Positions 14,163-38,850 of a stretch of 64,000 nucleotides of DNA are shown piece after piece. The notes beneath the pieces were generated by a model that was not told the DNA's origin, searched no databases, and saw only the letters and a program-made list of their open reading frames with translations. This DNA comes from an uncultured virus (IMG/VR IMGVR_UViG_3300044956_001223) (taxonomy: Duplodnaviria; Heunggongvirae; Uroviricota; Caudoviricetes). Location: IMG/VR virus record IMGVR_UViG_3300044956_001223; one strand, 5' to 3'. The stretch's first letter is position 1. Every line of letters begins with the position of its first letter. The position numbers were made by a program, and so were the translations under genes.

Positions 14163-17100
14163 ATGTCACAAATATCGAATAATTTTGATTATTTTGCAAA
14201 TGATTTAGGCTTAAATTTAAATAATTATGCTATTAATTATGATTTTAAAAGAAATAGAAATATAATTCAAGCTGCAAGATTAACAGGAAATACTCCAGGA
14301 AATCCAGATAGTGATTTTTTTGGATATTCAACTTCACTAAACTCTGCTGGAAATGTTCTATCTGTTGGAGCGCAATTTGCTGATACAAATGGAATAAGCA
14401 GTGCAGGCGCAGTTTATATTTTCACTGGAAATGGTAATTCTTGGGCTCAAGCTGCAAGATTAACAGGAAACACTCTTGGATTAGGAAATCCAGCTAGTAA
14501 TTTTTTTGGAAGTTCAACTTCACTAAACTCTGCTGGAAATGTTCTATCTGTTGGAGCGTACCTTGCTGATACAAATGGAATAAGCAGTGCAGGCGCAGTT
14601 TATATTTTCACTGGAAATGGTAATTCTTGGGCTCAAGCTGCAAGATTAACAGGAAACACTCTTGGATTAGGAAATCCAGCTGGTGATTATTTTGGAAGTT
14701 CAACTTCACTAAACTCTGCTGGAAATGTTCTATCTGTTGGAGCGTACCTTGCTGATACAACTGGAGTAGCTGCAGGCGCAGTTTATATTTTCACTGGAAA
14801 TGGTAATTCTTGGGCTCAAGCTGCAAGATTAACAGGAAATACTCCAGGAAATCCAGCTAGTGATTTTTTTGGAATTTCAACTTCACTAAACTCTGCTGGA
14901 AATGTTCTATCTGTTGGAGCGTACCTTGCTGATACAGATGGAGTAGCTGCAGGTGCAGTTTATGTTTTTACTGGAAATGGTAATTCTTGGGCTCAAGCTG
15001 CAAGATTAACAGGAAATACTCCAGGAAATCCAGCTAGTAATTTTTTTGGAAGTTCAACTTCACTAAACTCTGCTGGAAATGTTCTATCTGTTGGAGCGTA
15101 CCTTGCTGATACAAATGGAATAAGCAGTGCAGGCGCAGTTTATATTTTCACTGGAAATGGTAATTCTTGGGCTCAAGCTGCAAGATTAACAGGAAACACT
15201 CTTGGATTAGGAAATCCAGGTAATGATCATTTTGGATATTCAACTTCACTAAACTCTGCTGGAAATGTTCTATCTGTTGGAGCGTTCTTTGCTGATACAA
15301 ATGGAATAAGCAGTGCAGGCGCAGTTTATGTTTTTACTGGAAATGGTAATTCTTGGGCTCAAGCTGCAAGATTAACAGGAAACACTCTTGGATTAGGAAA
15401 TCCAGATAGTGATTATTTTGGATATTCAACTTCACTAAACTCTGCTGGAAATGTTCTATCTGTTGGAGCGCAATTTGCTGATACAAATGGAATAAGCAAT
15501 GCAGGCGCAGTTTATATTTTCGATACAAATTCATACATCAAAAATCTATCAGTATTTTCTGGTTTTTATTCTGGAGAAATTAAAAATGATCAAGCTATAA
15601 ATTTATTGCAAAATAATGAAATTATTGAATTTAGTGGATCAAATTATCTAGAAGTAAAAAATGCCACAGGATTAAAAAATGATTATTTTACAATATATTG
15701 TGCATACGAAAGAAGTAGCGGTGAAGAGGCAGTTTTATTTTCATCTCTTCATTCAATTGATAACATAAATTATTCTGGATTTAATTTTGGAATAACAAGA
15801 TACAATAATTACTATTACGAATATTATGATCTAGCAGACGGGCCAAAAGTATATATTAGCTCAAAGAAAGCGGACACAAAAGGTATAGTCGCTCTCACGA
15901 AAAATGTAACCACAATAAATATAAATAATTATGACGCAACAGAAGAGATATTTGAATTCGAATCTTTCGAAACTGTCTCCGATACTGATAAACAGAATAA
16001 ATTTTTGATTGGCTTTGGTGATACTTATCCTTTTTTTAGTGGTAAAAATTTTATAGGCAAAATAAATTCTTTAATATATTTAAATGAATCTTTAAATTCT
16101 ACCTATCTAAATGATGCTGCAGATGGATTTATTTATGATATAAATAAAAATATAACTTTAGAAAATATAGAAGAAATCTATAGCTTTACTGGTTTTGAAG
16201 GAAATATCACTGGTGGATTTTTTGATACAACTAGTGGAAATCTGCTTAATTGTTTAAATAATTATTCATTTTATGATTATCCAGGTTTTGTTTCTGGAGT
16301 AATATTTGGTTCGATAACCGGCGGAATACATACAGCTACTGGATATTTTACGGGTTTTATAGCCCAAACATTTAATTATACAAAAGATGTTGAAAGATTT
16401 TTTAGTAATATTGTTATTACTGGAACAAATACAGGATACGAATTATTTATTTCAGGAACTGGCTATACAGGATATGTTAATATTAATGCTGGAGAAATTG
16501 TTAATATTTGCGGCACGGGTTCTCCAATATATTTTATCTCGGGATTAGGAAATGAAACTCTTTCTGGATTAGTAGTTACAGGAGTAGATCAATTAACTGG
16601 CCTTGTAACTGGTATACAATTATTAAAAAATCAATCATTCTTGGAAACTATTAATTTTCCATTTTCAGGTAATATAAATTCTTTATTTAATTCTTTTGTT
16701 AATACGGGCAACTATACATATAAATTTACATTAGAAAATAATGGTACATATATAACAAAAAATGAACAAATAAAATTTTCTAATACTTATTTAACTGGCG
16801 TAGAAATATCTAAGACAACAAATTTATTAATAAATAAATTTACTACAAAAGATAAAAATATCAATTATTTAAATAGTATAGGAGTAGATGAAGTTGTATT
16901 TAATAAAAAATTAGATTCAGAAGATGTTATTGAGGTTTATGCTTTTGATTTTGATCAAGATTATTCTCCCATCATAAATGAAAATGAAAAAATTAATACA
17001 ACAAATAATACATTTAGGATATTTGATAATAAAAATATTTCAGCAATACACAACAATGGGCTTTTGGAGGTAAATAAAATTGAAATTCCATCAAATTTTA

Positions 17101-18701
17101 ATTATTTTATAGATTCTATTGATAGAATTTCTGGAAATTATGATTTAGATGATTTAGTATTGATAGATTTTATAAAAACTGGATTTTCAGGATATTATTA
17201 TGATGGAACAGGATATATGCTATATCCAGACCATAAAGATTTTTTATATTCTTACGGCAAAAAATTAATTAGTGGAATAGATTATTTTCAAAGTGGAGAC
17301 AATAAAACTTATAATATAACAGGTTTGATAATTAAATCACCTAGTCAATTGGCAAGATTAACAGGAAACACTCCAGGAAATCCAGACGGAGATAATTTTG
17401 GTCATTCAACTTCACTAAACTCTGCTGGAAATGTTCTATCTGTTGGAGCATATTCTGCAGATACTAATGGGGTAAGTAACGCTGGAGCAGTTTACATTTT
17501 CACTGGAAATGGTAATTCTTGGGCTCAAGCTGCAAGATTAACAGGAAACACTCTTGGATTAGGAAATCCAAGTAATGATTATTTTGGATATTCAACTTCA
17601 CTAAACTCTGCTGGAAATGTTCTATCTGTTGGAGCGTTCTTTGCTGATACTAATGGGGTAAGTAACGCTGGAGCAGTTTATATTTTCACTGGAAATGGTA
17701 ATTCTTGGGCTCAAGCTGCAAGATTAACAGGAAACACTCTTGGATTAGGAAATCCAGATAGTGATTATTTTGGATATTCAACTTCACTAAACTCTGCTGG
17801 AAATGTTCTATCTGTTGGAGCGTACTTTGCTGATACTAATGGGGTAAGTAACGCTGGAGCAGTTTACATTTTCACTGGAAATGGTAATTCTTGGGCTCAA
17901 GCTGCAAGATTAACAGGAAATACTCCAGGAAATCCAGTTAGTGATTTTTTTGGATATTCAACTTCACTAAACTCTGCTGGAAATGTTCTATCTGTTGGAG
18001 CGTACCTTGCTGATACAGATGGAGTAGCTGCAGGTGCAGTTTATGTTTTTACTGGAAATGGTAATTCTTGGGCTCAAGCTGCAAGATTAACAGGAAATAC
18101 TCCAGGAAATCCAGCTAGTAATTTTTTTGGAAGTTCAACTTCACTAAACTCTGCTGGAAATGTTCTATCTGTTGGAGCGTACCTTGCTGATACAAATGGA
18201 ATAAGCAGTGCAGGCGCAGTTTATGTTTTTACTGGAAATGGTAATTCTTGGGCTCAAGCTGCAAGATTAACAGGAAACACTCTTGGATTAGGAAATCCAG
18301 ATAATGATTTTTTTGGATATTCAACTTCACTAAACTCTGCTGGAAATGTTCTATCTGTTGGAGCGTACCTTGCTGATACAACTGGAGTAGCTGCAGGCGC
18401 AGTTTATCTTTTCGATACAAATTCTTATAAAAAAGAAAAAGAAAAAACCGTTGACGGATATATATATGGATATAACTCAATATTAGATTATAAACTAATC
18501 TCAGGAAATACATATACTTTAAATTTACCCAAAAAATACTCTAGAGATTCTATAAGCGTATATCTAAACGGTATAAAACAAAATCCTATCACAGATTATA
18601 TAGAAAAATCATTATTTGACAAAATATTTGATCCCGTATTTATTGAAAATTTGAGTAAAAATATATATAATACAAATGACGCTTTAGATGTAAATAAATA
18701 A
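14163..18701 (+). CDS. Large tail adhesin with two FG-GAP (integrin-alpha-like) beta-propellers (7 and 6 blades) and a LamG-like domain
   Basis: 13 repeats of FG.S...GNVLSVGA...AGAVYIF; LamG-like segment (EFSGSNYL...FTIY...LFSS...SGFNFGI); TG/SG-rich middle region. Confidence 0.8.
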   Translation: MSQISNNFDYFANDLGLNLNNYAINYDFKRNRNIIQAARLTGNTPGNPDSDFFGYSTSLNSAGNVLSVGAQFADTNGISSAGAVYIFTGNGNSWAQAARLTGNTLGLGNPASNFFGSSTSLNSAGNVLSVGAYLADTNGISSAGAVYIFTGNGNSWAQAARLTGNTLGLGNPAGDYFGSSTSLNSAGNVLSVGAYLADTTGVAAGAVYIFTGNGNSWAQAARLTGNTPGNPASDFFGISTSLNSAGNVLSVGAYLADTDGVAAGAVYVFTGNGNSWAQAARLTGNTPGNPASNFFGSSTSLNSAGNVLSVGAYLADTNGISSAGAVYIFTGNGNSWAQAARLTGNTLGLGNPGNDHFGYSTSLNSAGNVLSVGAFFADTNGISSAGAVYVFTGNGNSWAQAARLTGNTLGLGNPDSDYFGYSTSLNSAGNVLSVGAQFADTNGISNAGAVYIFDTNSYIKNLSVFSGFYSGEIKNDQAINLLQNNEIIEFSGSNYLEVKNATGLKNDYFTIYCAYERSSGEEAVLFSSLHSIDNINYSGFNFGITRYNNYYYEYYDLADGPKVYISSKKADTKGIVALTKNVTTININNYDATEEIFEFESFETVSDTDKQNKFLIGFGDTYPFFSGKNFIGKINSLIYLNESLNSTYLNDAADGFIYDINKNITLENIEEIYSFTGFEGNITGGFFDTTSGNLLNCLNNYSFYDYPGFVSGVIFGSITGGIHTATGYFTGFIAQTFNYTKDVERFFSNIVITGTNTGYELFISGTGYTGYVNINAGEIVNICGTGSPIYFISGLGNETLSGLVVTGVDQLTGLVTGIQLLKNQSFLETINFPFSGNINSLFNSFVNTGNYTYKFTLENNGTYITKNEQIKFSNTYLTGVEISKTTNLLINKFTTKDKNINYLNSIGVDEVVFNKKLDSEDVIEVYAFDFDQDYSPIINENEKINTTNNTFRIFDNKNISAIHNNGLLEVNKIEIPSNFNYFIDSIDRISGNYDLDDLVLIDFIKTGFSGYYYDGTGYMLYPDHKDFLYSYGKKLISGIDYFQSGDNKTYNITGLIIKSPSQLARLTGNTPGNPDGDNFGHSTSLNSAGNVLSVGAYSADTNGVSNAGAVYIFTGNGNSWAQAARLTGNTLGLGNPSNDYFGYSTSLNSAGNVLSVGAFFADTNGVSNAGAVYIFTGNGNSWAQAARLTGNTLGLGNPDSDYFGYSTSLNSAGNVLSVGAYFADTNGVSNAGAVYIFTGNGNSWAQAARLTGNTPGNPVSDFFGYSTSLNSAGNVLSVGAYLADTDGVAAGAVYVFTGNGNSWAQAARLTGNTPGNPASNFFGSSTSLNSAGNVLSVGAYLADTNGISSAGAVYVFTGNGNSWAQAARLTGNTLGLGNPDNDFFGYSTSLNSAGNVLSVGAYLADTTGVAAGAVYLFDTNSYKKEKEKTVDGYIYGYNSILDYKLISGNTYTLNLPKKYSRDSISVYLNGIKQNPITDYIEKSLFDKIFDPVFIENLSKNIYNTNDALDVNK
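14268..15521 (+). repeat. Tandem array of 7 near-identical coding repeats (177-186 nt)
   Basis: Unit starts (caagctgcaagatta) at 14268, 14448, 14634, 14817, 14994, 15174, 15360. Confidence 0.95.
17352..18412 (+). repeat. Second tandem array of 6 near-identical coding repeats of the same family
   Basis: Same nucleotide consensus as 14268-15521; 17958-18224 reads identical to 14877-15143. Confidence 0.95.
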
Positions 18702-18705: not shown

Positions 18706-21432
18706 ATGCCATCAATATTTAAAAACATAGATACAGTAACAGTTAATGGGTCTAATAAATATTTAGGCGGATACATATATGATGTAAATTTTAAACCATC
18801 TATAGGCCAAGAAGCGGCTACTTTAACAGTTAGTTTAGTTAGCGAGGATGGTAGATATGCCAACCCAATCCTAACCGTAAAACAACCTAGTCAAATTCGC
18901 ATAGGTAACCTTTCATTAAATATGTATCCGATTAAATATACAAAGAAAGATTCTCCACAAGGCAAAATATTAGAAGTAGAATTTACTGATGGAAGTTTTT
19001 ATTTAGATAAAATATATGTAGGATTAATAAAAAAACATTGGAATGTCCCAAGAGGTAATTTTTATCAAAGATTTACAATAAATAAAAATTTTATAATTCT
19101 AGGAAGAGAACTCCACCCATGCGACACAGATAAAGACGGAAGATTAAGCCCGCAGGAAATAAGAGATTCTGATCCTTGCGATCCTTGCCCATCCTGTCCG
19201 CCAGAAAAATTAAATAAACAAACAAAATGTGATGAGCTAAGTTTCCAAAAAATATTCGACGTTGCTTATAATTTTTATGAATTTTTAGATGGCCTTGCCG
19301 CGATGGGAAAATTTTCAGTTCAGAAACCCCAAATTCCAGAATCTCAAATTAAACAATATATAAGAGATTATACAGGTACAGCAAGAACAGTTTTGGATTC
19401 ATGGTGTTCTGATTTGGCATTAAGCTATGTCTACGATTCTTCAAGCAATCTTTTATTTTTTAAAGATATATCAAATGACTTAAAAGTAAATGAATCAGCA
19501 ATTAAAAATTTAGTCGAAAGCGCCTCGACGAAAGTCATTTCTAAAGAAATAGAGGAATCTATGGAAAATACTTTATCTCATGGTTCTTTGTCTTTATATG
19601 AGAGAGATGGTCAGCTTAAGAGTTATAATTGTACAAAATCTCAATCATTAGTTTTACCAATCATAACAGATTTTGATTTTCTTGGAGAAAGAAAAAGAAC
19701 CACCGCAGATAAAAAATTAGATTCTCTTCTTGATACTGTTGGCGCAATTTTAGGGAATTATTCTGAAAGTTTAAGAGAAAGTTTTTGGTTAAGAAAAATT
19801 TATGGGGTTAACAATCCAAAATCCGCAAGAAAAATGGTAGAAAAACTTGAACTTGGTAAAGGATCTCAAGAAAGAGGTTCTGGATATTTTGAAAAAATAA
19901 GTAAAAAAATGCCGGAATTAGGAAATATGATTATTATTGGCGTAATTGAAGATCCCGCCAAAGCTGCTGGAAGTTTAGAAGAAGAAGAAAAGCTAATAAA
20001 TCAACAGTACAATACACTAGTTAATAATATGTCCAATGACATAGAAAGAAATCAATTTTTAAAAGATAAAGGATTTTTTTTAATAGCTTATCATGAAAAA
20101 GATAACTATGAAAAAAGATTACAAACAGAACAACAACTTTTTGAAGCATTGGGAAGATTTTATGTTAGAGAAGGATATGTAAAACTTTGTGGAATAACAG
20201 GTTCTCCAGAAGAAATAATTAGAAATACAGAGATTAATGCTGGAGATGGAGGTAATGCTAACTTTTATTCTAGAGGATTTGAATTATCTAACTTACCAAT
20301 AGCAAAATATCCTTATGAGCCCAATGGATATGTTTCCTGCTTGTTAGCTCCATCAGTAGCTAAAGCAGATTCAACAAAAAATCCCCCTAAAAGTATATTT
20401 GAAAATTTAGAAACTAAAACAACAGATAATGCATCATATTATGGCCCAACAATATTAACGATTGAAAGAGAGCCCGTATGGGATCCAGATCCTAAAAAAT
20501 TAGAAGGTTACAAAGAACTTTTAGACAAATTCCAAGGTTTTATGCTCAAAGAATATGGTAATGACGGAAGAGGTTATGTACCAACTTCTGCATACCCAGA
20601 AAGTATACAAGAAATTTTAAAAACTAATGTTTCTTCAGTGGTATCTCCGGCCGGAGATATACTTCCTGGAAATATAAGAATATACACAATGATTCCTCAA
20701 GATTCTTTGAATATTAACTGGGTTTGGAATGTAGAGCATCCAACAGAAAAGCTTGGAAAAGAAATAAAAGAGAATAAACAAAGAAAAGATCCTACTACTA
20801 TTCCAGGTTTAATAAGTAAAAAAACTTTTAAAATTTCAATAGACGACACTTTCGCTATATATGCTCCACCACTTTCTATCCAAGAAAATCTAAAACCAGG
20901 AAATCAATCGGATGATAACCCATGTGACGATTTTGTTAAAGACAGAAAACCAGCATATCGAGTAATTCTAAATCAAAGTTATAATGTTTCTAAAGAAATA
21001 CCTAAAATACAAAGCGTTCAAGAAAATCTTCCAAATGTTTTTTCAGAAGATACTATGAAATTTGAATTAAATTATTTAAATATTACAGACTCAGATTTTA
21101 GAGTTTTAGGAGCAACTTGTACTCCAAATAATTTGGTATTAAAAGAAATTCACAATAAATTTAATGTAAGACAAACTTCTTCGGTCTTAGAAAGATTTAA
21201 AAAAATAAAATATCAATTAAAAGGTATTCCTAATATTGATTTAAAAACAGCATTAGATTTAGGCCTAGATGAATTAAATTTTTCTTATGCTGCGGATGGA
21301 GGAGTTTGTAATATTTCATTTAGCAATAGTTATGCAAAGACTCCTAGTTTAGATGCAATTCGTGCGGGAATTGCATATAACAAAATACAACATTATTCAT
21401 CATCTTCATCCGCAAAGGAATCTTCAATATAA
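18706..21432 (+). CDS. Putative baseplate hub/tail tip protein
   Basis: 908 aa; N-terminal GYIYDVNF...ATLTVSLVSEDG...LEVEFTD, then a G.AR.VLDSWC segment resembling hub/Tal-type proteins. Confidence 0.45.
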   Translation: MPSIFKNIDTVTVNGSNKYLGGYIYDVNFKPSIGQEAATLTVSLVSEDGRYANPILTVKQPSQIRIGNLSLNMYPIKYTKKDSPQGKILEVEFTDGSFYLDKIYVGLIKKHWNVPRGNFYQRFTINKNFIILGRELHPCDTDKDGRLSPQEIRDSDPCDPCPSCPPEKLNKQTKCDELSFQKIFDVAYNFYEFLDGLAAMGKFSVQKPQIPESQIKQYIRDYTGTARTVLDSWCSDLALSYVYDSSSNLLFFKDISNDLKVNESAIKNLVESASTKVISKEIEESMENTLSHGSLSLYERDGQLKSYNCTKSQSLVLPIITDFDFLGERKRTTADKKLDSLLDTVGAILGNYSESLRESFWLRKIYGVNNPKSARKMVEKLELGKGSQERGSGYFEKISKKMPELGNMIIIGVIEDPAKAAGSLEEEEKLINQQYNTLVNNMSNDIERNQFLKDKGFFLIAYHEKDNYEKRLQTEQQLFEALGRFYVREGYVKLCGITGSPEEIIRNTEINAGDGGNANFYSRGFELSNLPIAKYPYEPNGYVSCLLAPSVAKADSTKNPPKSIFENLETKTTDNASYYGPTILTIEREPVWDPDPKKLEGYKELLDKFQGFMLKEYGNDGRGYVPTSAYPESIQEILKTNVSSVVSPAGDILPGNIRIYTMIPQDSLNINWVWNVEHPTEKLGKEIKENKQRKDPTTIPGLISKKTFKISIDDTFAIYAPPLSIQENLKPGNQSDDNPCDDFVKDRKPAYRVILNQSYNVSKEIPKIQSVQENLPNVFSEDTMKFELNYLNITDSDFRVLGATCTPNNLVLKEIHNKFNVRQTSSVLERFKKIKYQLKGIPNIDLKTALDLGLDELNFSYAADGGVCNISFSNSYAKTPSLDAIRAGIAYNKIQHYSSSSSAKESSI

Positions 21433-24400
21433 TGATTGCATCAGGCTTTAAGAAAATAAATTTTTTAAATCAAACTGAAAACTTTGATTATAATATATTA
21501 TTAAGTATTTCAAATTTTACTGGCTATTTTGAATTTGGTTTAAGCGGAAGCGGAGAAAATTTATCTTTCAATGGTCAACATGGAAAATTAAGAGATAAGA
21601 ACAATAACCTCATGATAGGTTATGTCAAGGATGAACCATTAGATATACAGGGAAAAATATCTTTAAATAAACAATCTTTGTCGATTAATAATTTTTTAAT
21701 TTATCAAAATATAGATCTCACGGGTTACAATTTTAACCATTTTTACTTAAATCCTATCAATGTAAATATCGATTACTCTTTTAGCTTAACTGGAAAAACT
21801 ACAGATTTTAATCTAAGTTTATTAAATAAAAAAATAAAGGATTTTAATATAACTGGTGCAGATGGAACTACTTTCAGTACCAAAACTTTAACTGGATTAA
21901 TTCTTAATTCTAGTCCTGATTTAGAAATAAAAATATTCTCAGGAGAAGTTTTAAATAAAAGCGACTACTATTCGCTTGGAGGATTTCCTACGTCTTTTTA
22001 TAATAGTGGTCAATATTTAATAGATACTCATACGGGAGAAGACGCGTTAATAAATGATGCTTTCGAAGCTAGATTTTATACAAATTTTGGAATAATAGAC
22101 AAAACGATACAGATAAGTGGAGACGAAATTCCTTTATTTTTCTTATTTTTTAATGTTCTTCCGCAAATAAGTGGTTTTCCAAATCTTCAAACTGGATCTG
22201 ATTTAATTTTCGTAAATAATCCTAAAAATTATTATGTTAGTTATGGTTATGTTTCTGGTGCTCAAGTACAAGCAAGTTTGACGTATATTCAAGGACTAAC
22301 TGGAAATGTAACTGGATTTTTAGAAGCAACCGGAGCATTTTCTGGTTATTTAAGTGGATTAATAACTGGATCAGGATTTTTATCAACGTTCATCACTGGG
22401 ACAGGAATAACGTTTAGTGTTTATAATGAATTTTTAAATTCCGTTGAATTTTCAAATGAAACTGGGTTTTTTGCAAAAAAGTTTTTTGAAGCGACAGGTT
22501 ATTCACAAGGAAATTATTATGTAAAAGGTTTTGGTTCTGGCTCTGGAATTTTTCTCAAAGATATATATGCTTCAGGGCTGCAAAACTTTACTTATAGTGG
22601 ACAGGTCCCATATATAGGGGGGATTAATGTTATATTTAATCCTCAATCAATGATCGGAACGGGTAAAGATGTAAATGAAATTGGTCAAACAATTTATCCA
22701 GAAGGGTATTTAGATTATACAGATGTTGCAAACAGTATTAAAATATTATATACTGGATTTCTTACTGGAGTAATTCTAGATACTGGAAAATATGGATTAA
22801 AAACTTTTTTTTACGATCCCCAAAAAACTGGAAAATTTGTATTTGAATCTTTTATACCAGGTACAGGATTAAAATTTAAATCATTTATAACAGGTATAGT
22901 AACTCCTCAATTTTTTGTAGATCTGCCATTTGGGTATTTTCAATTTATTAAAAATGTGACTGGAATAATTAGTGGGGACGCAAGAACATTTGATGATAAT
23001 TCTGTATATACTGGATATAAAAAATTATTAGAATGTTCCGAATCAACTGGATCAAGGAATTATGTAGTTTCTACTACTATTAATTTTACGGGGGAAGAAT
23101 CTATTAAAGTAACTGGATATGCTTTTTTAAGCCCTTGCACCCAAGCTGAAATACCGAGTGGGTTTAGTATTGAATTTACAGGTCTAGGCGATAAACTTTA
23201 TTTAATAGTAGATGAAGATAAATGTAAAATCAATAAAATCCAAGCGGATGAAAATATCCCGAAATGGCTGCTCATTAAACCTTCTGGTGTTTTTGAAATT
23301 TTATTTAAAACAGGAATATCTGGAAATAATTTACCTTTATATTCGGATGATTTATTTTTTAGTCAAAATTCTGGGAAACAATATCAGTTGTTTGCAGATA
23401 ATTCTTCTGGTTATTTTAAAAATATAATTGGTGATAAATGTACAAATGAAGGAATTTGGGAACAATATTTTAAAACTGCAGTGCAAGTAAAAGAGAATTA
23501 TTCAAACTTTTATTTAAAAAACTTTAATGTCAATTTAATTAGTCTTGAAGATAATGGAAGAGATTATCCTTCAGAAGTGTATTTCAATGTAAAAAATAAC
23601 AATGAAAATTATAATTTTCAATTAACTCAAAATAATACAGTTATTAACTCTTCTCCACAAAGGGATTTACATCTAAAATTAATTTTAAGCAAGAAAATCC
23701 TAGATGGATATAGTGGACTTTACGAAACCAGTTATTTTAAATCTAATAATCTTTTTAGTTTTTGCACTGGTCTTTCAATTGGAGATTATCGAGCAAAAAT
23801 AAAATATTTAAATGTAGACAAATCTCCAAAAATTAGAAGTTTATGTCGTATACCTATACAAATAGCAAATATATTAGATAAAAATATTTATAACAAATTG
23901 AATATCGATTTTTTTACTGGATCTGGACAACTATCTCAAGATTTTTATGGATTTAGATATCTTGGAAGCGGCTGGCATCAACAAGCAAATATTTATTATA
24001 CAAAAACAGGAATTTATGGACATGGTTTTATAACTGGTTATACTCAAGTTTATAGAGATATGTTATATACTCCTCCTTATATTGATTCACAAGATAATTT
24101 TACTCCGGACTTAAGATTAATACAAGCTTTCAATCTCGCTTTAACTGGATTAAATTGGAGTGGATACGGAGTAAAAAATATTAATATATTTACAAACAGA
24201 GTTTCTTTATCTGGTGTATATAAAAAAGATTTTTTAAAATATATCAATGACATTTACAATACAGGAAAATTTATTGTAAATGTTTTTGATTATCCAGATG
24301 TTTCTTTTTGGGGCAAACAAAAACTTTGGGTTGAAGGATCTGGAATTTCTGGTATCTTCTATGAAGATGACGGAATATTCAATAAATTAGAAGTTCACTC

Positions 24401-25588: not shown

Positions 25589-26005
25589 TTAAATAAAAAA
25601 TACATCTATATTTTCTTCATCTGCTTTTACTACAGAAAAATTACGAAATTTAGCTTTTTCAAAATTTAACTTCTCTACAAATTTTAACCATTCAGATCTT
25701 TTTACTCTTTCTATTGTCCCTGAATAGTTTTTTGGCGGAGCTATAAAAAATAAGAAATGATTTAAATCAAATGCCCCTGGGTGGGTATTAATAAAATCTC
25801 TAAAAAACAAGTAAGCTTTTTCTTTATTTTTTAATATATAGTCTTTTATTCTATTCCTACATCCACAATTAGGATTATTTATGGCGCTTTCTATGTCTTC
25901 TGCCATTTCTGGCGCCCATTCTTTTGTTAATTCTTTAAATACTGGATTATTTATAAGGTAAAGAAATATTTCACCTAAATAAGGATAGTTTTCATCTATT
26001 GTCAT
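25589..26005 (-). CDS. Hypothetical protein (NPNCGC motif), lone antisense gene in the structural block
   Basis: 138-aa ORF filling the gap between two + strand genes. Confidence 0.65.
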   Translation of the reverse strand: MTIDENYPYLGEIFLYLINNPVFKELTKEWAPEMAEDIESAINNPNCGCRNRIKDYILKNKEKAYLFFRDFINTHPGAFDLNHFLFFIAPPKNYSGTIERVKRSEWLKFVEKLNFEKAKFRNFSVVKADEENIDVFFI

Positions 26006-30370: not shown

Positions 30371-33106
30371 ATGCAAGATTATTATAAAAAATATAAACTA
30401 TGGACTTTGTATTTTGGAGCATTTTTCTCTGGAAATAGATATTTCTTGTCAGATTTTGAAATTACTCCAATTGAATTTAATAGATTTTTTAGTCCTTATT
30501 ATATTGATTTAATCAATATTCCTTCAGAAGGATATATTTCTTACATAAATTTTTTAAGTCCATTACATGAAAAAAGTTTACCAAATGGCGCAGATAGAAA
30601 TTTCTTTCATCAACAAAGATCTGATACTTTACTTATAAATTTTGCTGAATTAAAAAAATTTTACAGTGAAGATTGTGATAATCAAAGAATTGAAACATGT
30701 CTTTATTATTTTGGAAATAAATTGACCTACAATCATTTAAGTGGAAATTTTAATAAAAGAATATGGACTTCGCCAAAACAACTATATGATATCATGTATG
30801 ATTTAAGTTTAACCTATACCGGAAACATAACTGGTGTGCCGGAAAAAGCAACGAAATTTACTATTTCTGGGATTACGGGAAAAAAAATTGTTTTTTCTGG
30901 AATAGGTTATGGATTACATGAATGTTATGGTTGCGTAGATAATATTTCATATATCGAAACCTCTGGCATTATATCTGGAGATTATTTTCCTAATTGCAAC
31001 ACTCCTTTACAAGAATTAAAAACTGCAACCTTTACTATAGATTATAATACATATAATTTATTTTACAATAATAGCAATCCTACTCAAACCCTTTTAAGTT
31101 TAAATTCAGAAAACATTGATTTAACTGGTATTCCACTAAATAGTTATATAAAACCTAGCTCCGTTAATGCTAATCTATCAAAACAATTCGTGACTGGATA
31201 TTCAATTTCTGCATCAGAACTAGCCAGAACAAAAAATGAGATACCATTATTTTTTAGAACTTTAAATTTTAATTCTCTAAGATTAACTCCAATCTATAAA
31301 GATATATTTTCTGGTAATTATCATTTAAATAAAATATTAAATATTTCAGGTAAAAAAACATCGAGTTATAGATATCTTCCTAATCTGGAATGTGGAGAAA
31401 AAGTTTATGGAAGCAGAATATATAATGTCCCAGATTTTTTATTTAGTAGAGGAGTTTCACCAGAAGATTATGTATATAATATATATAATAGTTTAATTTC
31501 TGGTTCTTCGGTTTATGAATATGAGGTTACTGGTGGAAATTATTTACCGGCTTTACAAAATATAAAAGAAAGAAGATCATACTATATATCAAATACTGGG
31601 TTGCCTGATCCTGAGATAGCAATTACTCAAACTCCTGGAGATAGTGGTATCAAAAAAGATTCACCATTTTTTACAAATATTTCAGGATTAACATTTCATT
31701 TAAACGCTATAGATGATTTATCTTTTCTTACATTTGGAGATTTTGGAACTTCAATAATAAAAAATAAAACTAATTTTAATAAAGATTATTATACCAATCG
31801 ATCTGGTGACTGCGTGGGATTTTATATGGATACAGTATTTACTTTTACTGGTGCCGGAATTAATCAAGATCAACCGTCATTTACATTTTCTATATCTGGA
31901 CAAAATATTAATTTAGAAAATAATTTTATTGGCTCAGGTTATAATTCTTTTTATCCAGGATATTATACAAATTTTAATGCTCCCCCCGGGTTGATAATGA
32001 ATCCAAGATCTACATTTTTATTTACTGGAGGATTTACTGGTGGCTTACCTATTTCTATATTTTTTGTAGAATCTGGTGCTGTATTTTCTGGACAAAAAAC
32101 TATACAATCTTTAAATAGAAGCGGATATATGACAACGAGACATATTAACACTGGAGCATTAATAAATTTTACTGTTGTTCAAAATCCTAGCGGAAGTCTA
32201 TACGTAACAGGTCTTCTAACTTACAATCGTATAAGAAATCCAATATTTCGTAATGATTTTCAAGTTGGAAATTTAATTATGGATACCGGAAGACTTTTAT
32301 ATTACGTAAATAATTCATTAATATATTCTGGAAATACAGGTTTTAATTTAGAATATATGATGCTTGGTAGCAACAATACTAGAATTAATCTTACTGGAAG
32401 TGGCACTTTTATTGGAGATGGTGTTACTGGTCTCGGTGACGAAAGAGCATTTTCTATATTTTTCCCATCTACATATTATAATGATTTATTTGGATTTAGT
32501 GGCTCTATTCATGAAATATTAATATATAATAATTTTATTAATGATAATCATAAAAATGAAGTTTATAGCTATCTAACGAATAAATGGTCTGGTGTATACC
32601 AATATAGTCCTAGTGGAAGAGTTTTTTATTATACAAATAAACCAAACTTTCCAAAATCTTATAAAAAAAACTGTTCTGATTGTGATTCATTAATAGCCAC
32701 TTTCCCAAAAGAAAAAGAAAAACATATTGTTTTATTAGAGTATAATTTATATGGATTTGAAGACACTAGACTAGAAGATTGTGATATAGATATGCATGCT
32801 TATATGCTAAAAACTGGTTTTCACGAAGAAATCGTGAAAAAAGATCCTTTTATAAGTTCTTTTAAAATTAATTTTAATTCTGGAACATCTAAAGAGAGCC
32901 TTGGAAAAATAGAAATAAAGAGTCCAAATATACATAATATATGTGATATGAATTTTAGTTATAATAGTTTATCTACGAATGTGCAGAGGCAAAATTTAAA
33001 AGAAATAAAAAGTGAAATCGTGCTTTATAAACCATCTAAGCAAGATCCAGGGGGATGTTTACCTGATTATATTAAATATGGAAAAATTTATGGCAATCAA
33101 CTTTAA
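30371..33106 (+). CDS. Virion protein with a LamG/concanavalin-like domain
   Basis: 911 aa; ISGLTFHLNA ... FSGSIHEILIYN...EVYSYLTNKW signature; TG/SG-rich. Confidence 0.6.
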   Translation: MQDYYKKYKLWTLYFGAFFSGNRYFLSDFEITPIEFNRFFSPYYIDLINIPSEGYISYINFLSPLHEKSLPNGADRNFFHQQRSDTLLINFAELKKFYSEDCDNQRIETCLYYFGNKLTYNHLSGNFNKRIWTSPKQLYDIMYDLSLTYTGNITGVPEKATKFTISGITGKKIVFSGIGYGLHECYGCVDNISYIETSGIISGDYFPNCNTPLQELKTATFTIDYNTYNLFYNNSNPTQTLLSLNSENIDLTGIPLNSYIKPSSVNANLSKQFVTGYSISASELARTKNEIPLFFRTLNFNSLRLTPIYKDIFSGNYHLNKILNISGKKTSSYRYLPNLECGEKVYGSRIYNVPDFLFSRGVSPEDYVYNIYNSLISGSSVYEYEVTGGNYLPALQNIKERRSYYISNTGLPDPEIAITQTPGDSGIKKDSPFFTNISGLTFHLNAIDDLSFLTFGDFGTSIIKNKTNFNKDYYTNRSGDCVGFYMDTVFTFTGAGINQDQPSFTFSISGQNINLENNFIGSGYNSFYPGYYTNFNAPPGLIMNPRSTFLFTGGFTGGLPISIFFVESGAVFSGQKTIQSLNRSGYMTTRHINTGALINFTVVQNPSGSLYVTGLLTYNRIRNPIFRNDFQVGNLIMDTGRLLYYVNNSLIYSGNTGFNLEYMMLGSNNTRINLTGSGTFIGDGVTGLGDERAFSIFFPSTYYNDLFGFSGSIHEILIYNNFINDNHKNEVYSYLTNKWSGVYQYSPSGRVFYYTNKPNFPKSYKKNCSDCDSLIATFPKEKEKHIVLLEYNLYGFEDTRLEDCDIDMHAYMLKTGFHEEIVKKDPFISSFKINFNSGTSKESLGKIEIKSPNIHNICDMNFSYNSLSTNVQRQNLKEIKSEIVLYKPSKQDPGGCLPDYIKYGKIYGNQL

Positions 33107-34664
33107 TATAAACATGATTTCAGCTTTGCTTAATTCAATTAATTATGTAATTGAATTAAGTGGAAATTCAAACAGTAATAAAACATTTAATGTATTAAAT
33201 AATGAAAGCCTTGAAATAGGTTTTGATAAAAACAAAATTTATAATATAAATGCAAAAAATTTAGAACGTACATTTTCATTATTTAAAATTAACAATGAAT
33301 TAATACAAGGAGCAAATTCTTATGTAGATGAAAATAAATTAACTATAGATTTTACTGAAAATATTCCGCAAAGAAGCATTGAACTTTATACTCCAGATAA
33401 TGAAACTCTTTATATTACTTATCGATTAGATAACGTTAATAATCAAAAATTAAAAGCTTTTACTCTAGATCTTTTTAATTATGAAACAGGAGTTTTAACC
33501 ACGTTAAGAGATCTGCCGCAAGTTTATTATTTACCCTATACTGGAGATAAATATAATACACCCTGTTATCCTTTTATAGAATTTGGACAAATAGATCCAT
33601 GCACAGATATGTTTGTATGTTCAATTTGCAATTCTGCAAAAGGAATATTTATAGAACAAGGTCCAGGCGCTACAATGATTGTTCCTAGGAGTTTATTGCC
33701 TTTCAATATTTATGGCCGAGAGTCAATTTATAATTCTGGTCAACCATATGTTGACTATGATTTTGATTATAGAGTACCCGGAAGCTACAGAATTTTCTTA
33801 AATAATAACCTTTTTAAGTCATGTTGTTGCGAGCCAGATCCAGAAGCCCGCTGTCGCCCTTCCACCACCCCCTCAGATATATCAAGTTATTGCGATAAAA
33901 TAGATAATTATGAATTATCATATTTTAAAAGAATTAAAAAAACTGATTTAATTTTTGACCAAGAAGAAATCTCTATAGCGGATTATCTAGAAAATAAATT
34001 TAATATTTTATTTTTAGATAATATATCTTTCTCAAAAATTAAAGAATCATATTTTTTAAATTATTCTGGACAAATAAATAATACTAAGTCTTTCATAGAA
34101 GGAGACTCAATAGCAATCAGACAGTATTATTATCCCTACGAAGAATGTTTTTCGAAAATATTTTACAGAGATCCAGAATATTCAGAAGTAGATCAAAGAT
34201 TAATATATTCAATAGAAAAAAGTGGTGAAAATTATTTTTCAAATCAAAATGAATTGATACAAAAAATTAATTTAATATATAATTCTAGTGGAATTTATAG
34301 TTGGATACCTCTAGCTTTTAAAGATGAACCAGTGTATGATTTTGGTCCATTACTTTTAGCAGAAGCAATTGATGATAACAATATTTCTATAAAAAGTTTA
34401 AAATCTGGCTTACTTGGAAAACATTTAATCAAATTCGAAAGTGGCCCAGAAAGAAAAGGCATTGCCTCGACTTGGATGCTTCCAAAAAATATTAAATTGC
34501 AGGGTTCAAATAATTTAATTGATTGGGTAAACATTGTTGATACATCTACTGATAAGTCATTAAATGAAATCATCGAAAATATTCCTTTTGCAGGAAAAAT
34601 CCCTTATGATAACGAGAAGGCAGCTAAAGATACCAAGATAACAAAAACTGTAGGAATAAAATAA
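33090..34664 (+). CDS. Virion protein; C-terminus resembles the first part of a discoidin (F5/8 type C) domain
   Basis: Start placed at ATG 33090 (ORF track extends to 33012); PKNIKLQGSNNLIDW motif. Confidence 0.5.
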   Translation: MAINFNINMISALLNSINYVIELSGNSNSNKTFNVLNNESLEIGFDKNKIYNINAKNLERTFSLFKINNELIQGANSYVDENKLTIDFTENIPQRSIELYTPDNETLYITYRLDNVNNQKLKAFTLDLFNYETGVLTTLRDLPQVYYLPYTGDKYNTPCYPFIEFGQIDPCTDMFVCSICNSAKGIFIEQGPGATMIVPRSLLPFNIYGRESIYNSGQPYVDYDFDYRVPGSYRIFLNNNLFKSCCCEPDPEARCRPSTTPSDISSYCDKIDNYELSYFKRIKKTDLIFDQEEISIADYLENKFNILFLDNISFSKIKESYFLNYSGQINNTKSFIEGDSIAIRQYYYPYEECFSKIFYRDPEYSEVDQRLIYSIEKSGENYFSNQNELIQKINLIYNSSGIYSWIPLAFKDEPVYDFGPLLLAEAIDDNNISIKSLKSGLLGKHLIKFESGPERKGIASTWMLPKNIKLQGSNNLIDWVNIVDTSTDKSLNEIIENIPFAGKIPYDNEKAAKDTKITKTVGIK

Positions 34665-35031: not shown

Positions 35032-35037
35032 GTGTAA
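35032..35037 (+). promoter_or_regulatory. GTGTAA motif
   Basis: In the 20-nt gap before ATG 35047. Confidence 0.5.
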
Positions 35038-35046
35038 AAAATTAAT

Positions 35047-38000
35047 ATGCCTTATACTACAGGATCATATAAATACGCTAGACTATTAATGAGTGGATTT
35101 CTTTCTTCTCCACTTCCAAAAAGTGTTTTATCCAACCCTGATTTTAAAAATGGAATGGTTCTAAAAAATAATAAATATATGAAAGCTTACAATATTAATT
35201 TATTTGCTGATTATGTTTTTCAAACAGATATTTTAAATTTTAAATCAGCAACAGATATATTTAACTCTTCATATTCTGGTATTACTTTTTCTTCAGAAAC
35301 GGGAATTATTAAAATTATAGATGATATATTTATAGATCAATCAGGAATATATTCAATAAGCGGGGTTCAAACTGGAATTTTCCAAAGTGAAATAATAAAT
35401 ATTATTTCTGCTGGAGATGAACATAGTTTGTATGTTGATCCATTTTATGGAAGATATTTTGGCCTTGGAAATACTGGAGCGGGAAGAATCGGACCTCAAA
35501 ATATCAGTAATGTAATACAAGTTGCCGCAGGAACAGAACATACTTTAATCTTATTAAAAAATAAAAAATTAACAGGTTTTGGAAATAATGCAGATGGTCG
35601 CGTTTCTGGAATAACGGGAAATTTAACCTCCGGATACGGTTGGGATATTTCTCCAGTAGGAAAATTAACCGGTGTTACAAAAATATCTACAAAAAATTCT
35701 TTTTCTTTAGCTTTGCTTGGAGATAATGGCGTTACTGGTTGGGGGAACAATTCTACGGGTCAAATTTCTCCATTTGAAAATAAAGTTTTATATTTAAGTG
35801 GAATAAAAGATATTCAAGCGGGTAGCTCACATGGATTAATATTATTTAATAATGGTACTTTAACCGGATGGGGAAATAGTGGAACAGGTAATTGGATAGG
35901 AGATTGGAAATATCTTACAGGCGTAAAAGAAATTGGTGCAGGAAATGATCATAATGTAGCTTTACTAGAAAATGGAGTTGTTACTGGTTGGGGAAACAAT
36001 ATTTATAATCAAAGCCTTGGCGGTAATAATCTTACTGGGGTTAAAAAAATAAGCGCAGGAAGAGATTTTAATTTAGCTTTATTAAATGATAATACAATTA
36101 CAGGTTGGGGAGATAATACGTTTAATCAATGTTTAGGAGGAACTAATTTAGCTAATGTTAGTGGAGTATACGCGGGTGGAAATTATGGTATAGCAATATT
36201 AAATAATGGAATTATTACTGGTTGGGGCAACAATATTTATAATCAATATTTAATATACAATCCAAGGATTCCACCGAATGGAATCATTTATGATTTTACA
36301 TATTATAAAAAATCGGGCGCAATAAGAATGGTAGGCGGAGATTATAACGTAGGACCGCCGATTGGATATAGAGAACAAACTTATACTGGAATATATACAG
36401 GAATTATTACATTTAATGATTATTTTTATAATCCAGAAAAACAAACTTTATTTTTTATACAAGATGTATTTTATAGAGTTGAAGGACCACAAATTTTTAC
36501 GACTAACCTTACTACTTTAAATGATAAATCTAATAATCAACAGTTGCCTAGTTTAAGTACACTATTAGTAGATTTAGCTGATTTATCAGGATATCAAACT
36601 TCTACGATAACAACTACTGTATATGGTTTTATAAAAAATTATCCTTTAAAAAGATTACAAATTTCCGGATTTGCATATTTAACTGGTACAGTTAGTGGGA
36701 TTGGAACGGGCATAATTAATTTTAATCAACTTGTTTCGGGTTTTCCAGCAATAGCTTATAGCAATCAAGTGTCCGGATATAAAAATGCTACAGGTTTATT
36801 AAATTTTCAAAATTCAGAATTAGGTGATTTTATTATACTAAATAATGATTTTACTGGTAGCAATGTAAGTTTTATATATCAAACTGGTCAAGATTTTTTT
36901 GCTCCAGGATTTTTCAAAGATGCAAAAGATTTAAATAATATAATAAACTCTGGATCAAATGATTATGGGATAAAATCAACTTATTTACCTAATTTTAGTT
37001 TTTCATTAAAAACATTAATTACTGGAGACAATAAATTAGGAAATCCCGAAAATGATTTATTCGGAAGAGCCATACATTATAATGATTTTACTAATACTCT
37101 TTTTATTGGTGCTGCGTCAGACATTAATTCAGTTGCTAATGCTGGCGCTGTATATATTTTCTCTGGATATAGAAATAATTGGAAACAAATAGCGGTTTTA
37201 ACTGGTGATACATTTGGATTATCAAATCCAAATGCAGATAGATTTGGCTATTCTATATCTTCAAATTTTTCAGGAAATATATTAGCAATCGGCGCAATTA
37301 ATGCAGAAACAAATTCTGTTTCTTCAGCTGGTGCAGTTTATATTTTTACGGGCGGCGGAAGTTCTTGGTCTCAAACAGCAAGATTAACTGGAGATACATT
37401 AGGTTTTGGAAATCCAGACGGAGATAATTTTGGTCATTCAATTTCTTTAAATTTTGATGGAAACGTTCTTGCTGTTGGCGCGCAATTAGCTGATTCTAAT
37501 ACCTTGAGCAATGTTGGTGCAGCATATATTTTTACAGGTATACAAAACTCATGGAATCAAATTGCTAGATTAACTGGACAGAGGACAATACCAATTGTTC
37601 CTACGTCTGATCAAGTAGGATTTTCTGTCGCTCTTAATTCGAAGGGTGATACTCTTATTGCTGGAGCACCAATGGCAGATCCTTTTGGTATATCAAATGT
37701 TGGTGTAGCATTTATATTTACAGGTTATAGTGGTAATTGGAATCAATCTGCTTTAATTACCGGAAATACTTCTGGATCACCCTCCAATGACAGATTTGGA
37801 TATTCTATATCTCTTAGTGCAAAAGGAAATACTCTTGCTATTGGAGCATATTCTGCAGATACTAATGGGGTAAGTAACGCTGGAGCAGTTTACATTTTTA
37901 CAGGAAGTGGAAGCTCTTGGTCTCAAACAGCAAGATTAACTGGAGATACATTAGGTTTAGGAAATCCTACGAATCATTTTTTTGGAATTTCAACCTCATT

Positions 38001-38850
38001 AAATGAAATAGGTGATACACTTGCTGTAGGTGCAGATGGTTTACATGTCAATTCAATGCAAGATGTTGGCGCGGCTTATGTTTTTACTGGATATTCTAAT
38101 AGTTGGTCACAAGTGCTTATTATTACCGGAGACACATTGGGATATGGTGTTCCATCTGATGGTAGATTTGGCAATAAAATTATATTAAATAAATATGGAA
38201 ACGAATTATTTGTAGGAGCTTTTGGAGGAATTATTAATGGAATTAATAATGCAGGATATGTTAATTATATAGATTTAAAAGAACGTCTATTTTTAGAATC
38301 ATTAATTTCAGGAGAATTAGGAAATAATTTTAGAATTATTTCTCAAGGTTCAAATGAAGTGCCATTTTTAGAAAATGAATTTTTTAAAGGCGGAGAAGAT
38401 TTTAATGTAAAATTAACTCCATTACAAGGAATTATATTTACAGGAAATTTAAATAGCGGAATGTTTGTTACAGGATATTTTGAAAATCTTATTACAGGTG
38501 CAATTGAAAAAGAAATTACGGGTTTATTAGGATATAGACCTTTTACTGGATTATGGGACTTATATGAATTAACGGACGTTTCATTTATTAATATTAAAAA
38601 TACAGGTTATTTTGAAGAAACTGGTATTTTTACAAATTATACTGGATTTTCAAAAAATTTAACGAACGTTAAAAGATTTGCAGTAAGTTATACAAACCAA
38701 CCAGATTTTGAAAGTACAGATGTAGCATTATTAAATATAAATTTAAATGGTGGTTTGTCCGGATTTAGTTATAATATAATATTAACAGGTGATACGGAAT
38801 TAAATATACCAATAATTCCGCCTACCGGAAATGATTTTGAAATAAATTAA
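35047..38850 (+). CDS. Large tail adhesin with a 7-blade RCC1/BLIP-II propeller and a 7-blade FG-GAP propeller
   Basis: Seven AG..H / G(W/F/L)G.N units and seven NP..D.FG...GA...GA.YIF units. Confidence 0.8.
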   Translation: MPYTTGSYKYARLLMSGFLSSPLPKSVLSNPDFKNGMVLKNNKYMKAYNINLFADYVFQTDILNFKSATDIFNSSYSGITFSSETGIIKIIDDIFIDQSGIYSISGVQTGIFQSEIINIISAGDEHSLYVDPFYGRYFGLGNTGAGRIGPQNISNVIQVAAGTEHTLILLKNKKLTGFGNNADGRVSGITGNLTSGYGWDISPVGKLTGVTKISTKNSFSLALLGDNGVTGWGNNSTGQISPFENKVLYLSGIKDIQAGSSHGLILFNNGTLTGWGNSGTGNWIGDWKYLTGVKEIGAGNDHNVALLENGVVTGWGNNIYNQSLGGNNLTGVKKISAGRDFNLALLNDNTITGWGDNTFNQCLGGTNLANVSGVYAGGNYGIAILNNGIITGWGNNIYNQYLIYNPRIPPNGIIYDFTYYKKSGAIRMVGGDYNVGPPIGYREQTYTGIYTGIITFNDYFYNPEKQTLFFIQDVFYRVEGPQIFTTNLTTLNDKSNNQQLPSLSTLLVDLADLSGYQTSTITTTVYGFIKNYPLKRLQISGFAYLTGTVSGIGTGIINFNQLVSGFPAIAYSNQVSGYKNATGLLNFQNSELGDFIILNNDFTGSNVSFIYQTGQDFFAPGFFKDAKDLNNIINSGSNDYGIKSTYLPNFSFSLKTLITGDNKLGNPENDLFGRAIHYNDFTNTLFIGAASDINSVANAGAVYIFSGYRNNWKQIAVLTGDTFGLSNPNADRFGYSISSNFSGNILAIGAINAETNSVSSAGAVYIFTGGGSSWSQTARLTGDTLGFGNPDGDNFGHSISLNFDGNVLAVGAQLADSNTLSNVGAAYIFTGIQNSWNQIARLTGQRTIPIVPTSDQVGFSVALNSKGDTLIAGAPMADPFGISNVGVAFIFTGYSGNWNQSALITGNTSGSPSNDRFGYSISLSAKGNTLAIGAYSADTNGVSNAGAVYIFTGSGSSWSQTARLTGDTLGLGNPTNHFFGISTSLNEIGDTLAVGADGLHVNSMQDVGAAYVFTGYSNSWSQVLIITGDTLGYGVPSDGRFGNKIILNKYGNELFVGAFGGIINGINNAGYVNYIDLKERLFLESLISGELGNNFRIISQGSNEVPFLENEFFKGGEDFNVKLTPLQGIIFTGNLNSGMFVTGYFENLITGAIEKEITGLLGYRPFTGLWDLYELTDVSFINIKNTGYFEETGIFTNYTGFSKNLTNVKRFAVSYTNQPDFESTDVALLNINLNGGLSGFSYNIILTGDTELNIPIIPPTGNDFEIN

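Follow-up and report, generated by a model that had tools for sequence, protein, structure and literature searches.

Ser/Thr-Gly Pairs Enriched on Tail-Side Proteins of an Uncultured Phage Clade: A Candidate O-Glycosylation Acceptor

INTRODUCTION

Why should Gly be preceded so often by Ser or Thr in the tail proteins of one phage, whatever their fold? The question is raised by IMG/VR record IMGVR_UViG_3300044956_001223, a 64-kb stretch of DNA (64,000 nucleotides; hereafter the window) from an uncultured tailed phage. Its G+C content is 29.7%, and the sequencing runs that match it best are lake metagenomes. The initial annotation, made from the sequence alone, proposed that the pair, written [S/T]-G and called the tag below, is an O-glycosylation sequon that gives exposed tail proteins a dense glycan coat. 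We examined the size and origin of the [S/T]-G excess, its spread among relatives, the selection acting on it, and the genes that might read it.

RESULTS

The excess of [S/T]-G in the tail-side proteins

The plus strand of the window carries the neck, tail, tape measure, and tail-tip genes; the minus strand carries two glycosyltransferase (GT) genes, a DnaE-type replication block, and a sugar cassette. Genes are named by their lower coordinate. The tail-side features are as follows (aa, amino acids; sites are [S/T]-G pairs):

1738..2577, plus strand: 1738, probable tail terminator (by position and a weak atlas lead, score 0.85); 7 sites
5958..10886, plus strand: tape measure (PF10145); untagged control
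14163..18701, plus strand: 14163, 1512-aa tail-tip protein in which two FG-GAP propellers flank a non-repeat middle; 62 sites (45 T-G)
16179..16715, plus strand: densest stretch quoted in the initial annotation; Ser/Thr before 20/28 Gly
18706..21432, plus strand: 18706, 908-aa tail-tip protein between two tagged genes; untagged control
21432..25586, plus strand: 21432, 1384-aa tail-tip protein with an N-terminal galectin/ConA-like sandwich; 66 sites
26124..27449, plus strand: 26124, RCC1/BLIP-II-like propeller protein; 21 sites
28379..30334, plus strand: 28379, RCC1/BLIP-II-like propeller protein; 37 sites
30371..33106, plus strand: 30371, 911-aa tail-side protein of no known family; 41 sites (55% of Gly)
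33012..34664, plus strand: 33012, 550-aa tail-side protein; 9 sites; not listed in the initial annotation
35047..38850, plus strand: 35047, 1267-aa protein with RCC1 and FG-GAP propellers; 69 sites

Observed/expected (O/E) ratios were determined from 1000 shuffles per protein. The eight tagged proteins contain 312 [S/T]-G sites in 6,995 residues, and the 8-residue contexts of 290/312 sites are distinct. The O/E was 1.88 for 14163, 3.18 for 21432, 2.28 for 26124, 2.65 for 28379, 3.35 for 30371, and 2.49 for 35047 (all p≤0.001); it was 3.06 for 1738 (p≤0.002) and 2.81 for 33012. All seven proteins described at the outset as rich in the motif were therefore found to be so (1.88–3.35), with the qualification that the richness of 14163 lies in T-G (45 vs. 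15.0 expected), its S-G count (17 vs. 18.2) showing no excess. The original hand count for 16179–16715 (20 [S/T]-G and 28 Gly in 179 aa) was exact on recount, and 21432 (residue 288) and 28379 (residue 547) each contain one of the two peptides quoted with it.

When the six large proteins (14163, 21432, 26124, 28379, 30371, and 35047) were pooled, T-G was the top dipeptide (186 observed vs. 54.3 expected) and S-G was also in excess (110 vs. 62.4). The reverse pair G-T (29 vs. 54.3), N-G (46 vs. 72.9), and D-G were depleted; in this comparison, which had been suggested as a check, TG and SG were far above composition. The excess was highest outside the repeat propellers (3.33), where T-G was observed 116 times against 31 expected (3.7-fold) and S-G 102 times against 34 (3.0-fold), together accounting for 218/426 Gly. 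Baseline tails gave T-G and S-G ratios of 0.79 and 1.50 for lambda, 1.14 and 1.25 for T5, and 0.78 and 1.17 for Synechococcus phage S-CBS4; because of these values, we regard a mild S-G excess as ordinary in tails and a T-G excess as not. The flanks of the tag favor Ile, Val, Phe, Leu, and Tyr, one of which directly precedes the pair at 194/296 sites in the six large proteins. Acidic residues are under-represented (at −1, Asp 3 vs. 11.6 and Glu 7 vs. 9.7; at +2, Asp 7 vs. 11.6).

No enrichment was found in the tape measure (O/E 1.06), 18706 (0.39), 10886 (0.43), 12565 (0.79), 27446 (0.60), or 39471 (0), or in the replication block (24 sites vs. 19.1, p 0.16). This agrees with the earlier impression that the motif is rarer in the tape measure, 18706, 39573 (the gene called 39471 here), and the replication proteins. 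N-x-S/T and D-S/T are known prokaryotic sequons; neither was in excess in the six large proteins (97 vs. 102 and 49 vs. 48, respectively), which ruled them out as the cause. A generic turn-Gly cause was likewise rejected. We conclude that the [S/T]-G excess on the tail-side proteins is confirmed as real.

Within 21432 the sites are unevenly placed: 63/66 lie in residues 1–1000, and the Cys-rich final 184 residues contain none. The C-terminal third (24600–25586, plus strand) is rich in Pro, Gly, and Cys, with 3 sites in its final 384 residues; it looks like a recently added module, because orthologues stop near residue 700.

The tag as a protein-level trait

A DNA motif or a codon bias could produce such a dipeptide. 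In frame, the DNA word for ACN/TCN-GG was counted 256 times, against 8 out of frame. Ser before Gly is encoded by both AGY and TCN codons, AGY accounting for 40/110, the same usage as elsewhere. At sites common to orthologues, the hexamer differs in 41/47 and 100/115 comparisons (141/162 in total), and the tagged relatives span 28% to 49% G+C. The frame counts, mixed Ser codons, and differing hexamers ruled out a DNA-motif or codon cause, and we conclude that the tag is a protein-level trait.

The initial annotation had pointed to fixed positions of the motif in RCC1 and FG-GAP blades and had suggested a comparison with non-phage homologues. In FG-GAP blades of the window (Pfam FG-GAP_2 matches 14163 in 13 stretches), [S/T]-G follows YxF in 16/18 cases and a later Leu in 17/17. 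The corresponding counts in outside homologues (92 matches, P0029–P0120) were 4/507, with T-R in 200, and 4/404; in 14 matches from named or long-contig bacteria they were 0/77 and 0/59. The first 28 FG-GAP matches were excluded from the count because 12 of them are T-G-type proteins, enriched elsewhere too. Over all open reading frames (ORFs) of the relatives the FG-GAP pattern gave 11/26, a search that also catches unrelated proteins. The RCC1 motif VxxWG is of the VTGWG type in 16/16 cases in the window and 33/38 in relatives, vs. 3/105 in 19 named cellular proteins and 58/623 in P0131–P0240. The homologues therefore indicate that, of four propeller positions, three acquired the tag secondarily, and that these folds do not need it; the fourth position, LTGV of RCC1, which the initial annotation also listed, is family-inherited.

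One RCC1 protein (L071:10260–12641) has VTGWG/VSGWG blades in 7/7 matches with a whole-protein O/E of 0.79, which is low because its other half is Thr/Ser-rich and untagged. Outside the propellers, the N-terminus of 21432 was modeled as a galectin/ConA-like sandwich (fold search, weak matches, E ~5e-5), and its first 12 sites fall in loops (5), at strand ends (5), or in mid-strand (2).

Spread of the tag over relatives

Eleven of 24 relative records were examined, one of them (G009) through its first 60 kb; complete relatives are 172–203 kb. All 11 relatives have enriched proteins, from 2 to 10 each. The pooled O/E of orthologues (n, number of orthologue segments) was 3.50 for 21432 (n=14; 2.9–4.3), 3.28 for 33012 (n=6; 2.8–3.9), 2.26 for 14163 (n=25), and 2.17 for 1738 (n=48). 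It was 1.24 for the tube-like protein 2647 (n=45), 0.96 for the tape measure (n=50), 0.77 for 18706 (n=11; 0.21–1.01), 0.66 for capsid-like orthologues, and 0.49 for portal-like orthologues (a label given by position). The tag is thus clade-wide yet selective among proteins.

It is also labile within a protein. Orthologues of 10886 range from 0.2 to 2.8, and two orthologues of 1738 with 66% identity, a pair picked post hoc, have 9 sites (G011, L258:1064–1903) and 1 site (G014, L209:8254–9099); at 4/8 differing sites of this pair the Gly is kept and the hydroxyl residue replaced. Orthologues would accordingly appear to fold with or without the tag. No phage sequon or tail-protein tag of this kind was found in a literature search that covered mostly non-subscription papers, without their supplements.

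Selection for a hydroxyl residue before Gly

Selection was examined with a swap test, in which disjoint pairs of existing orthologues were aligned and the fate of Ser/Thr was scored where the next residue was common to both; the test is undirected and does not assign gains and losses to branches. In the five enriched families (51 pairs), Ser/Thr swaps vs. losses were 74/147 before Gly and 76/834 elsewhere, an odds ratio (OR) of 5.5 (3.8–8.0). The OR was 6.7 in the three non-repeat families, and 1738 alone, at 70% identity, gave 13/19 before Gly vs. 41/257. Among controls, non-enriched virion and assembly proteins gave 0.37, and FG-GAP and RCC1 proteins outside the clade gave 0.87 (46 pairs) and 1.14 (46 pairs; 98/110 matches, O/E below 1.5). 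Sister-clade terminators and tubes gave 0.93, a weak value from 6 pairs. Non-virion proteins showed a smaller effect (OR 1.96, 1.3–3.0), and part of the swap effect is therefore generic.

Where Thr before Gly changed, 62% of the changes were to Ser and 9% to Val or Ile; a purely beta-branching role would predict the reverse. These values are to be read with the caveats that the families were chosen for enrichment, that sites are non-independent, and that aligners may favor pairing of such motifs. The pattern indicates that selection keeps any hydroxyl residue before Gly.

Glycosyltransferases and sugar genes

The candidate sugar genes are all on the minus strand:

41922..43070, minus strand: 41922, split-GT9 C-lobe plus a C-terminal domain (~residues 190–382) of no known family
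43067..44995, minus strand: 43067, GT-B enzyme (GT4) with a CxxC-x14-CxxC insert, a DUF4214-like linker, and a GT9 N-lobe; clade-conserved
55963..57015, minus strand: Gmd, GDP-mannose 4,6-dehydratase
57012..63999, minus strand: variable sugar cassette with a DegT/ColD-like enzyme, three GT4, one GT2, and a C-methyltransferase

Family scans recovered the six GT-like genes, Gmd, and the ColD-like enzyme that had been reported, together with a C-methyltransferase; 62587 has no family match. Conservation was examined in 11 contigs, five of them at least 91% complete. By tblastn, the cassette genes 58450, 60673, and 61607 matched nothing but the near-identical G001, and 59487 matched 0/11 contigs; such a lack of conservation excludes these four GTs as the common reader of the tag. 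Both 43067 and 41922 were present in 11/11 contigs. Of 80 dnaE-selected loci, 71 extend at least 4 kb downstream, and all 71 have the pair; no GT-free member of the tagged clade was found among them. A second GT4, outside the window, is also core. Gmd is present in 9/11 tagged contigs.

The model of 43067 is a GT-B enzyme (pLDDT 84.7) whose best Foldseek match is a chlorovirus NY2A GT4 (3oy2, E 6.6e-18, 15% identity), itself without assigned function. GT9 models begin in the C-terminal end of 43067 and finish in 41922; the two proteins are fused in one chain in P0262 and P0293. In distant relatives the chain reads GT4-DUF4214-GT9-GT2 (GT2 extension in P0370, P0379, and P0385–P0387), a radical SAM domain extends it in P0371, and inteins interrupt it in three relatives. 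We interpret 43067 and 41922, from these matches, as a split multi-GT module (GT4 plus split GT9), with 43067 a candidate initiating or extending enzyme. The CxxC..CxxC element is found in 43067 and in 74/96 full-length representatives. The best NCBIfam matches of the GT9 lobes, far under the cut-off, were to models of lipopolysaccharide (LPS) heptosyltransferases. The C-terminal domain of 41922 (window 41922–42500), which has an alternating strand/helix look, matched no known family or natural structure. A predicted complex of the GT9 halves with residues 1–232 of 21432 scored 0.00 and counts neither way.

Among annotated core genes no kinase, acyltransferase, or chaperone family was prominent. 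No TET or dCMP-hydroxymethylase family was matched in the window or in 95 further ORFs of G014, a scan confined to ORFs of intermediate length that cross no boundary; G014 does encode one 2OG-Fe(II) oxygenase. A role of the GTs in T4-style DNA glycosylation is weakened by this lack of matches.

Adjoining the GT pair is 41122 (41122–41892, minus strand), a conserved 256-aa orphan that all 11 core contigs encode and that sister phages match weakly. Its one lead, to Sak/Rad52-like single-strand-annealing proteins, is sub-threshold; for this reason, and because the gene itself also occurs in sister phages, the model below does not include it. The relative G014 (L209–L217) carries a large glycan kit of its own: three GT10, a GT11, several GT2-type genes, GDP-fucose synthase-like and UDP-glucose dehydrogenase genes, a sulfotransferase, and a pyruvyl transferase.

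Contrast with the sister clade

A sister clade, reached via distant homologues, has terminator, tube, tape measure, and DnaE in common with the core clade at low similarity and splits from it at 100/100 on DnaB. Its GT4 homologue is ~555 aa, and a GT9 match was found in only 2/23 records searched; 10 were examined. For this contrast we scored the 20 kb that follow the tape measure gene, a gene that in two sister contigs was identified from its size and position. Eight sister contigs without GT9 gave [S/T]-G ratios of 1.07–1.59 and T-G 0.82–1.28. In 10/11 core contigs, the window included, [S/T]-G was 1.70–2.43 and T-G 1.52–3.22; the eleventh, G002, has 427 residues in that region (0.70) and its four enriched genes elsewhere. 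The C-terminal domain of 41922 tracks the trait exactly (12/12 core, 0/10 sister). Untagged sister phages also have the GT4 homologue, Gmd, and a distant second GT4, and S-CBS4 has a weak GT homologue and no tag.

In the sister phage G033 (L582, 22200–29200) the GT9 N- and C-lobes are separate genes in a cluster that resembles ADP-heptose synthesis (by eye, from N-termini), and its large proteins have Pro-Thr repeats in place of the tag.

Other features of the phage

A search of 50,697 phage records gave no cultured relative of 2647, of 41922, or of the first 723 residues of 21432, and DnaE matches reached at most ~33% identity. The DnaE-type polymerase is divided over three genes (45563–49714, minus strand), with its catalytic core, its PHP domain, and its exonuclease each in a gene of its own. 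A lone opposite-strand gene in the tail block (25589–26005, minus strand) encodes a 138-aa protein with homologues in several relatives and no family match. G014 has PEP-CTERM and autotransporter-repeat matches, a weak hint of a Verrucomicrobia/Planctomycetes-type host; the gene concerned adjoins a pilin-type N-methylation gene. In GTDB genomes the GT homologues lie on 18 contigs of metagenome-assembled genomes from mixed taxa, which are probably binned phage DNA and for that reason give no host.

DISCUSSION

The explanation that we favor, at slightly better than even chances, is that hydrophobic-[T/S]-G serves as the acceptor for O-glycosylation and is recognized by the conserved GT module, with variable genes adding outer sugars. 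The hydroxyl would accept the sugar and Gly would give the enzyme access to the backbone. Within the infected cytoplasm, phage enzymes would glycosylate outward-facing tail, terminator, and fibre proteins: 43067 and 41922, possibly with the second core GT4, would lay the first sugars, and the variable GTs, the Gmd/ColD-like enzymes, and the methyltransferase would add strain-specific outer ones. The resulting coat may shield the long tail apparatus from proteases, sticking to particles, or decoy binding, or may alter contact with the host. Cytoplasmic phage proteins do not avoid the pair, and therefore such an enzyme would have to draw its specificity from the folded surroundings of the site, from an adaptor, or from the timing of assembly.

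The sequon proposal in the initial annotation is partly supported. Three of the four refuting conditions named with it were checked from sequence, and none refuted it: the excess is far above composition, three of four blade positions are derived, and a sister clade that lacks the conserved GT4-GT9 module also lacks the T-G excess. The swap test adds selection for a hydroxyl. Several observations weigh against the proposal. Capsid and tape measure are untagged, and the single site that the 1-site orthologue of 1738 keeps is common to all 18 copies aligned from the core and sister clades, untagged phages included. Non-virion proteins do not avoid the pair (24 vs. 19.1) and have a swap effect of their own, and the dipeptide alone for this reason cannot give specificity. 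LTGV is inherited in RCC1 (12/24 here, 33/94 in named proteins), SGV occurs in BLIP-II, VTGWG replaces V-[I/L/V]-[A/G]-WG of BLIP-II, and some sites lie in strands, as do the mid-strand and strand-end sites of the 21432 model. The GTs resemble LPS heptosyltransferases and generic GT4 enzymes rather than a known protein O-GT, and four of the six, with the ColD-like gene, are not conserved with the motif. The co-occurrence of enrichment with GTs, another suggested check, was seen in that the GT9-less sister clade has no T-G excess; yet G034 has the GT pair with T-G at 0.88 and S-G at 2.11, and G033 has GT9 lobes and no enriched protein. Many other genes are also core-only, and the GT link is consequently a single clade-level contrast confounded by ancestry.

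Alternatives were considered in the light of these points. A structural or surface role without modification, in which the hydroxyl caps turns and strand ends before Gly or offers a bare hydroxyl surface and the trait drifts within the clade through repeat and module shuffling, seems unlikely to us. Caps formed by Ser/Thr hydroxyls are familiar from motifs of the ST-turn type; loops and strand ends hold 10/12 sites of the 21432 model, LTGV/SGV is ancestral to RCC1 proteins, S-G is mildly raised both in ordinary tails (1.17–1.50) and in the sister clade (1.16–1.81), and swaps before Gly are raised in non-virion proteins too. Asn and Asp cap turns equally well, however, and both are depleted before Gly; the same folds outside the clade use T-R, K-A, or V-A and have no swap preference, close orthologues drop most sites at once and retain the fold, and the clade-specific excess is carried by Thr, not Ser. 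We give a similarly low probability to another reader of the tag, such as a different phage or host modifying enzyme (phosphoryl, acyl, or other) or an assembly chaperone with affinity for hydrophobic-[S/T]-G strands, with the GTs acting on DNA, host LPS, or other virion sites. All of the evidence on the hydroxyl is blind to chemistry, the GT module is one of many genes confined to the tagged clade, its GT9 lobes best match LPS heptosyltransferase models, and the GT4 homologue, Gmd, and the distant second GT4 occur in untagged sister phages; on the other side, no kinase, acyltransferase, or chaperone family stood out, the scanned ORFs held no TET or dCMP-hydroxymethylase, and chloroviruses build virion glycans with multi-GT chains (PMC7826918). 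A neutral by-product of repeat homogenization, gene conversion between tail genes, or a DNA-level word is highly improbable and has been largely refuted. FG-GAP and RCC1 blades are indeed near-identical copies and the tail genes have modules in common, but the excess is highest outside the propellers, nearly all contexts are distinct, codons differ at common sites, the DNA word is not enriched out of frame, and the trait persists over a wide range of G+C.

Glycosylation by the conserved module can be compared with known systems. The primary study of mycobacteriophage virion glycosylation is reportedly that of Freeman et al. 2023. Glycosylation of virions by phage-encoded enzymes has precedent (PMC12619734, PMC11256854): in mycobacteriophages such as Che8, phage GTs place glycans at the C-termini of capsid and tail tube proteins (PMC12619734, PMC10877033, PMC11256854). 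The likeness lies in the several phage GTs, the cytoplasmic virion proteins, and the proposed shielding role; the difference is that here hundreds of internal [S/T]-G pairs are on tail-tip, fibre, and terminator proteins, with the capsid at 0.66 and the tube at 1.24. No mycobacteriophage homologue of 43067 or 41922 was found among the 50,697 phage records (tblastn, E 1e-3), where 43067 matched only S-CBS4 and 41922 nothing. In the bacterial autotransporter heptosyltransferases (BAHT; TibC/TibA and AAH/AIDA-I), a single surface protein is hyperglycosylated at many of its hydroxyl residues by a GT-B enzyme of the cytoplasm. A metal finger with four Cys interrupts the catalytic domain of TibC, and Ser-Gly-Gly occurs in one mapped TibA peptide, in which TibC modified Ser and not Thr (PMC4358343). 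The four-Cys insert of 43067 lies in its GT4 part and is at most a possible counterpart of the TibC finger; unlike in that system, Thr dominates (T-G 186 vs. S-G 110) and the carriers are propellers and sandwiches, not beta-helical passengers. The BAHT family model did not match the GTs in the NCBIfam scans.

Chlorovirus PBCV-1 has a multidomain GT, A111/114R, and a virus-encoded GMD (PMC7826918; PMC5408694), which recalls the multi-GT chains of the relatives and Gmd here, in architecture only. Its host is eukaryotic and its glycans are N-linked to four Asn of the major capsid protein (PMC7826918, PMC5408694), whereas the tag contains no Asn. In animal proteoglycans XT1/XT2 xylosylate Ser-Gly with acidic patches nearby (PMC13038410). 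This analogy, drawn in the initial annotation, is a poor fit beyond the order of hydroxyl residue and Gly: Thr exceeds Ser, the flanks are hydrophobic with Asp/Glu under-represented at −1 and +2, and the window contains no match to the xylosyltransferase family.

A fuller picture, to which we would give somewhat less than an even chance, is of a widespread clade of 170–200 kb aquatic phages with its own sequon O-glycosylation. The GT4-GT9 enzyme would be aimed by the 41922 domain, recruited domains (RCC1, FG-GAP, galectin-like) would have been re-written to carry ~300 potential sites on eight proteins, swappable GT cassettes would give strain coats, and other clades might use other dipeptide tags and enzymes. 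In the sources used here, phage glycosylation has been described as terminal and on the capsid and tail tube of mycobacteriophages; a dense sequon coat on tails would, if true, be a new form, predictable from sequence. It would also supply a purpose for many unexplained GT and nucleotide-sugar genes of large aquatic phages and a cytoplasmic protein O-glycosyltransferase with a very short sequon, useful in glycoengineering. Even without a sugar, a hydroxyl-Gly tag imposed across unrelated folds within a single clade is a genuine pattern of evolution, and one that calls for a reader.

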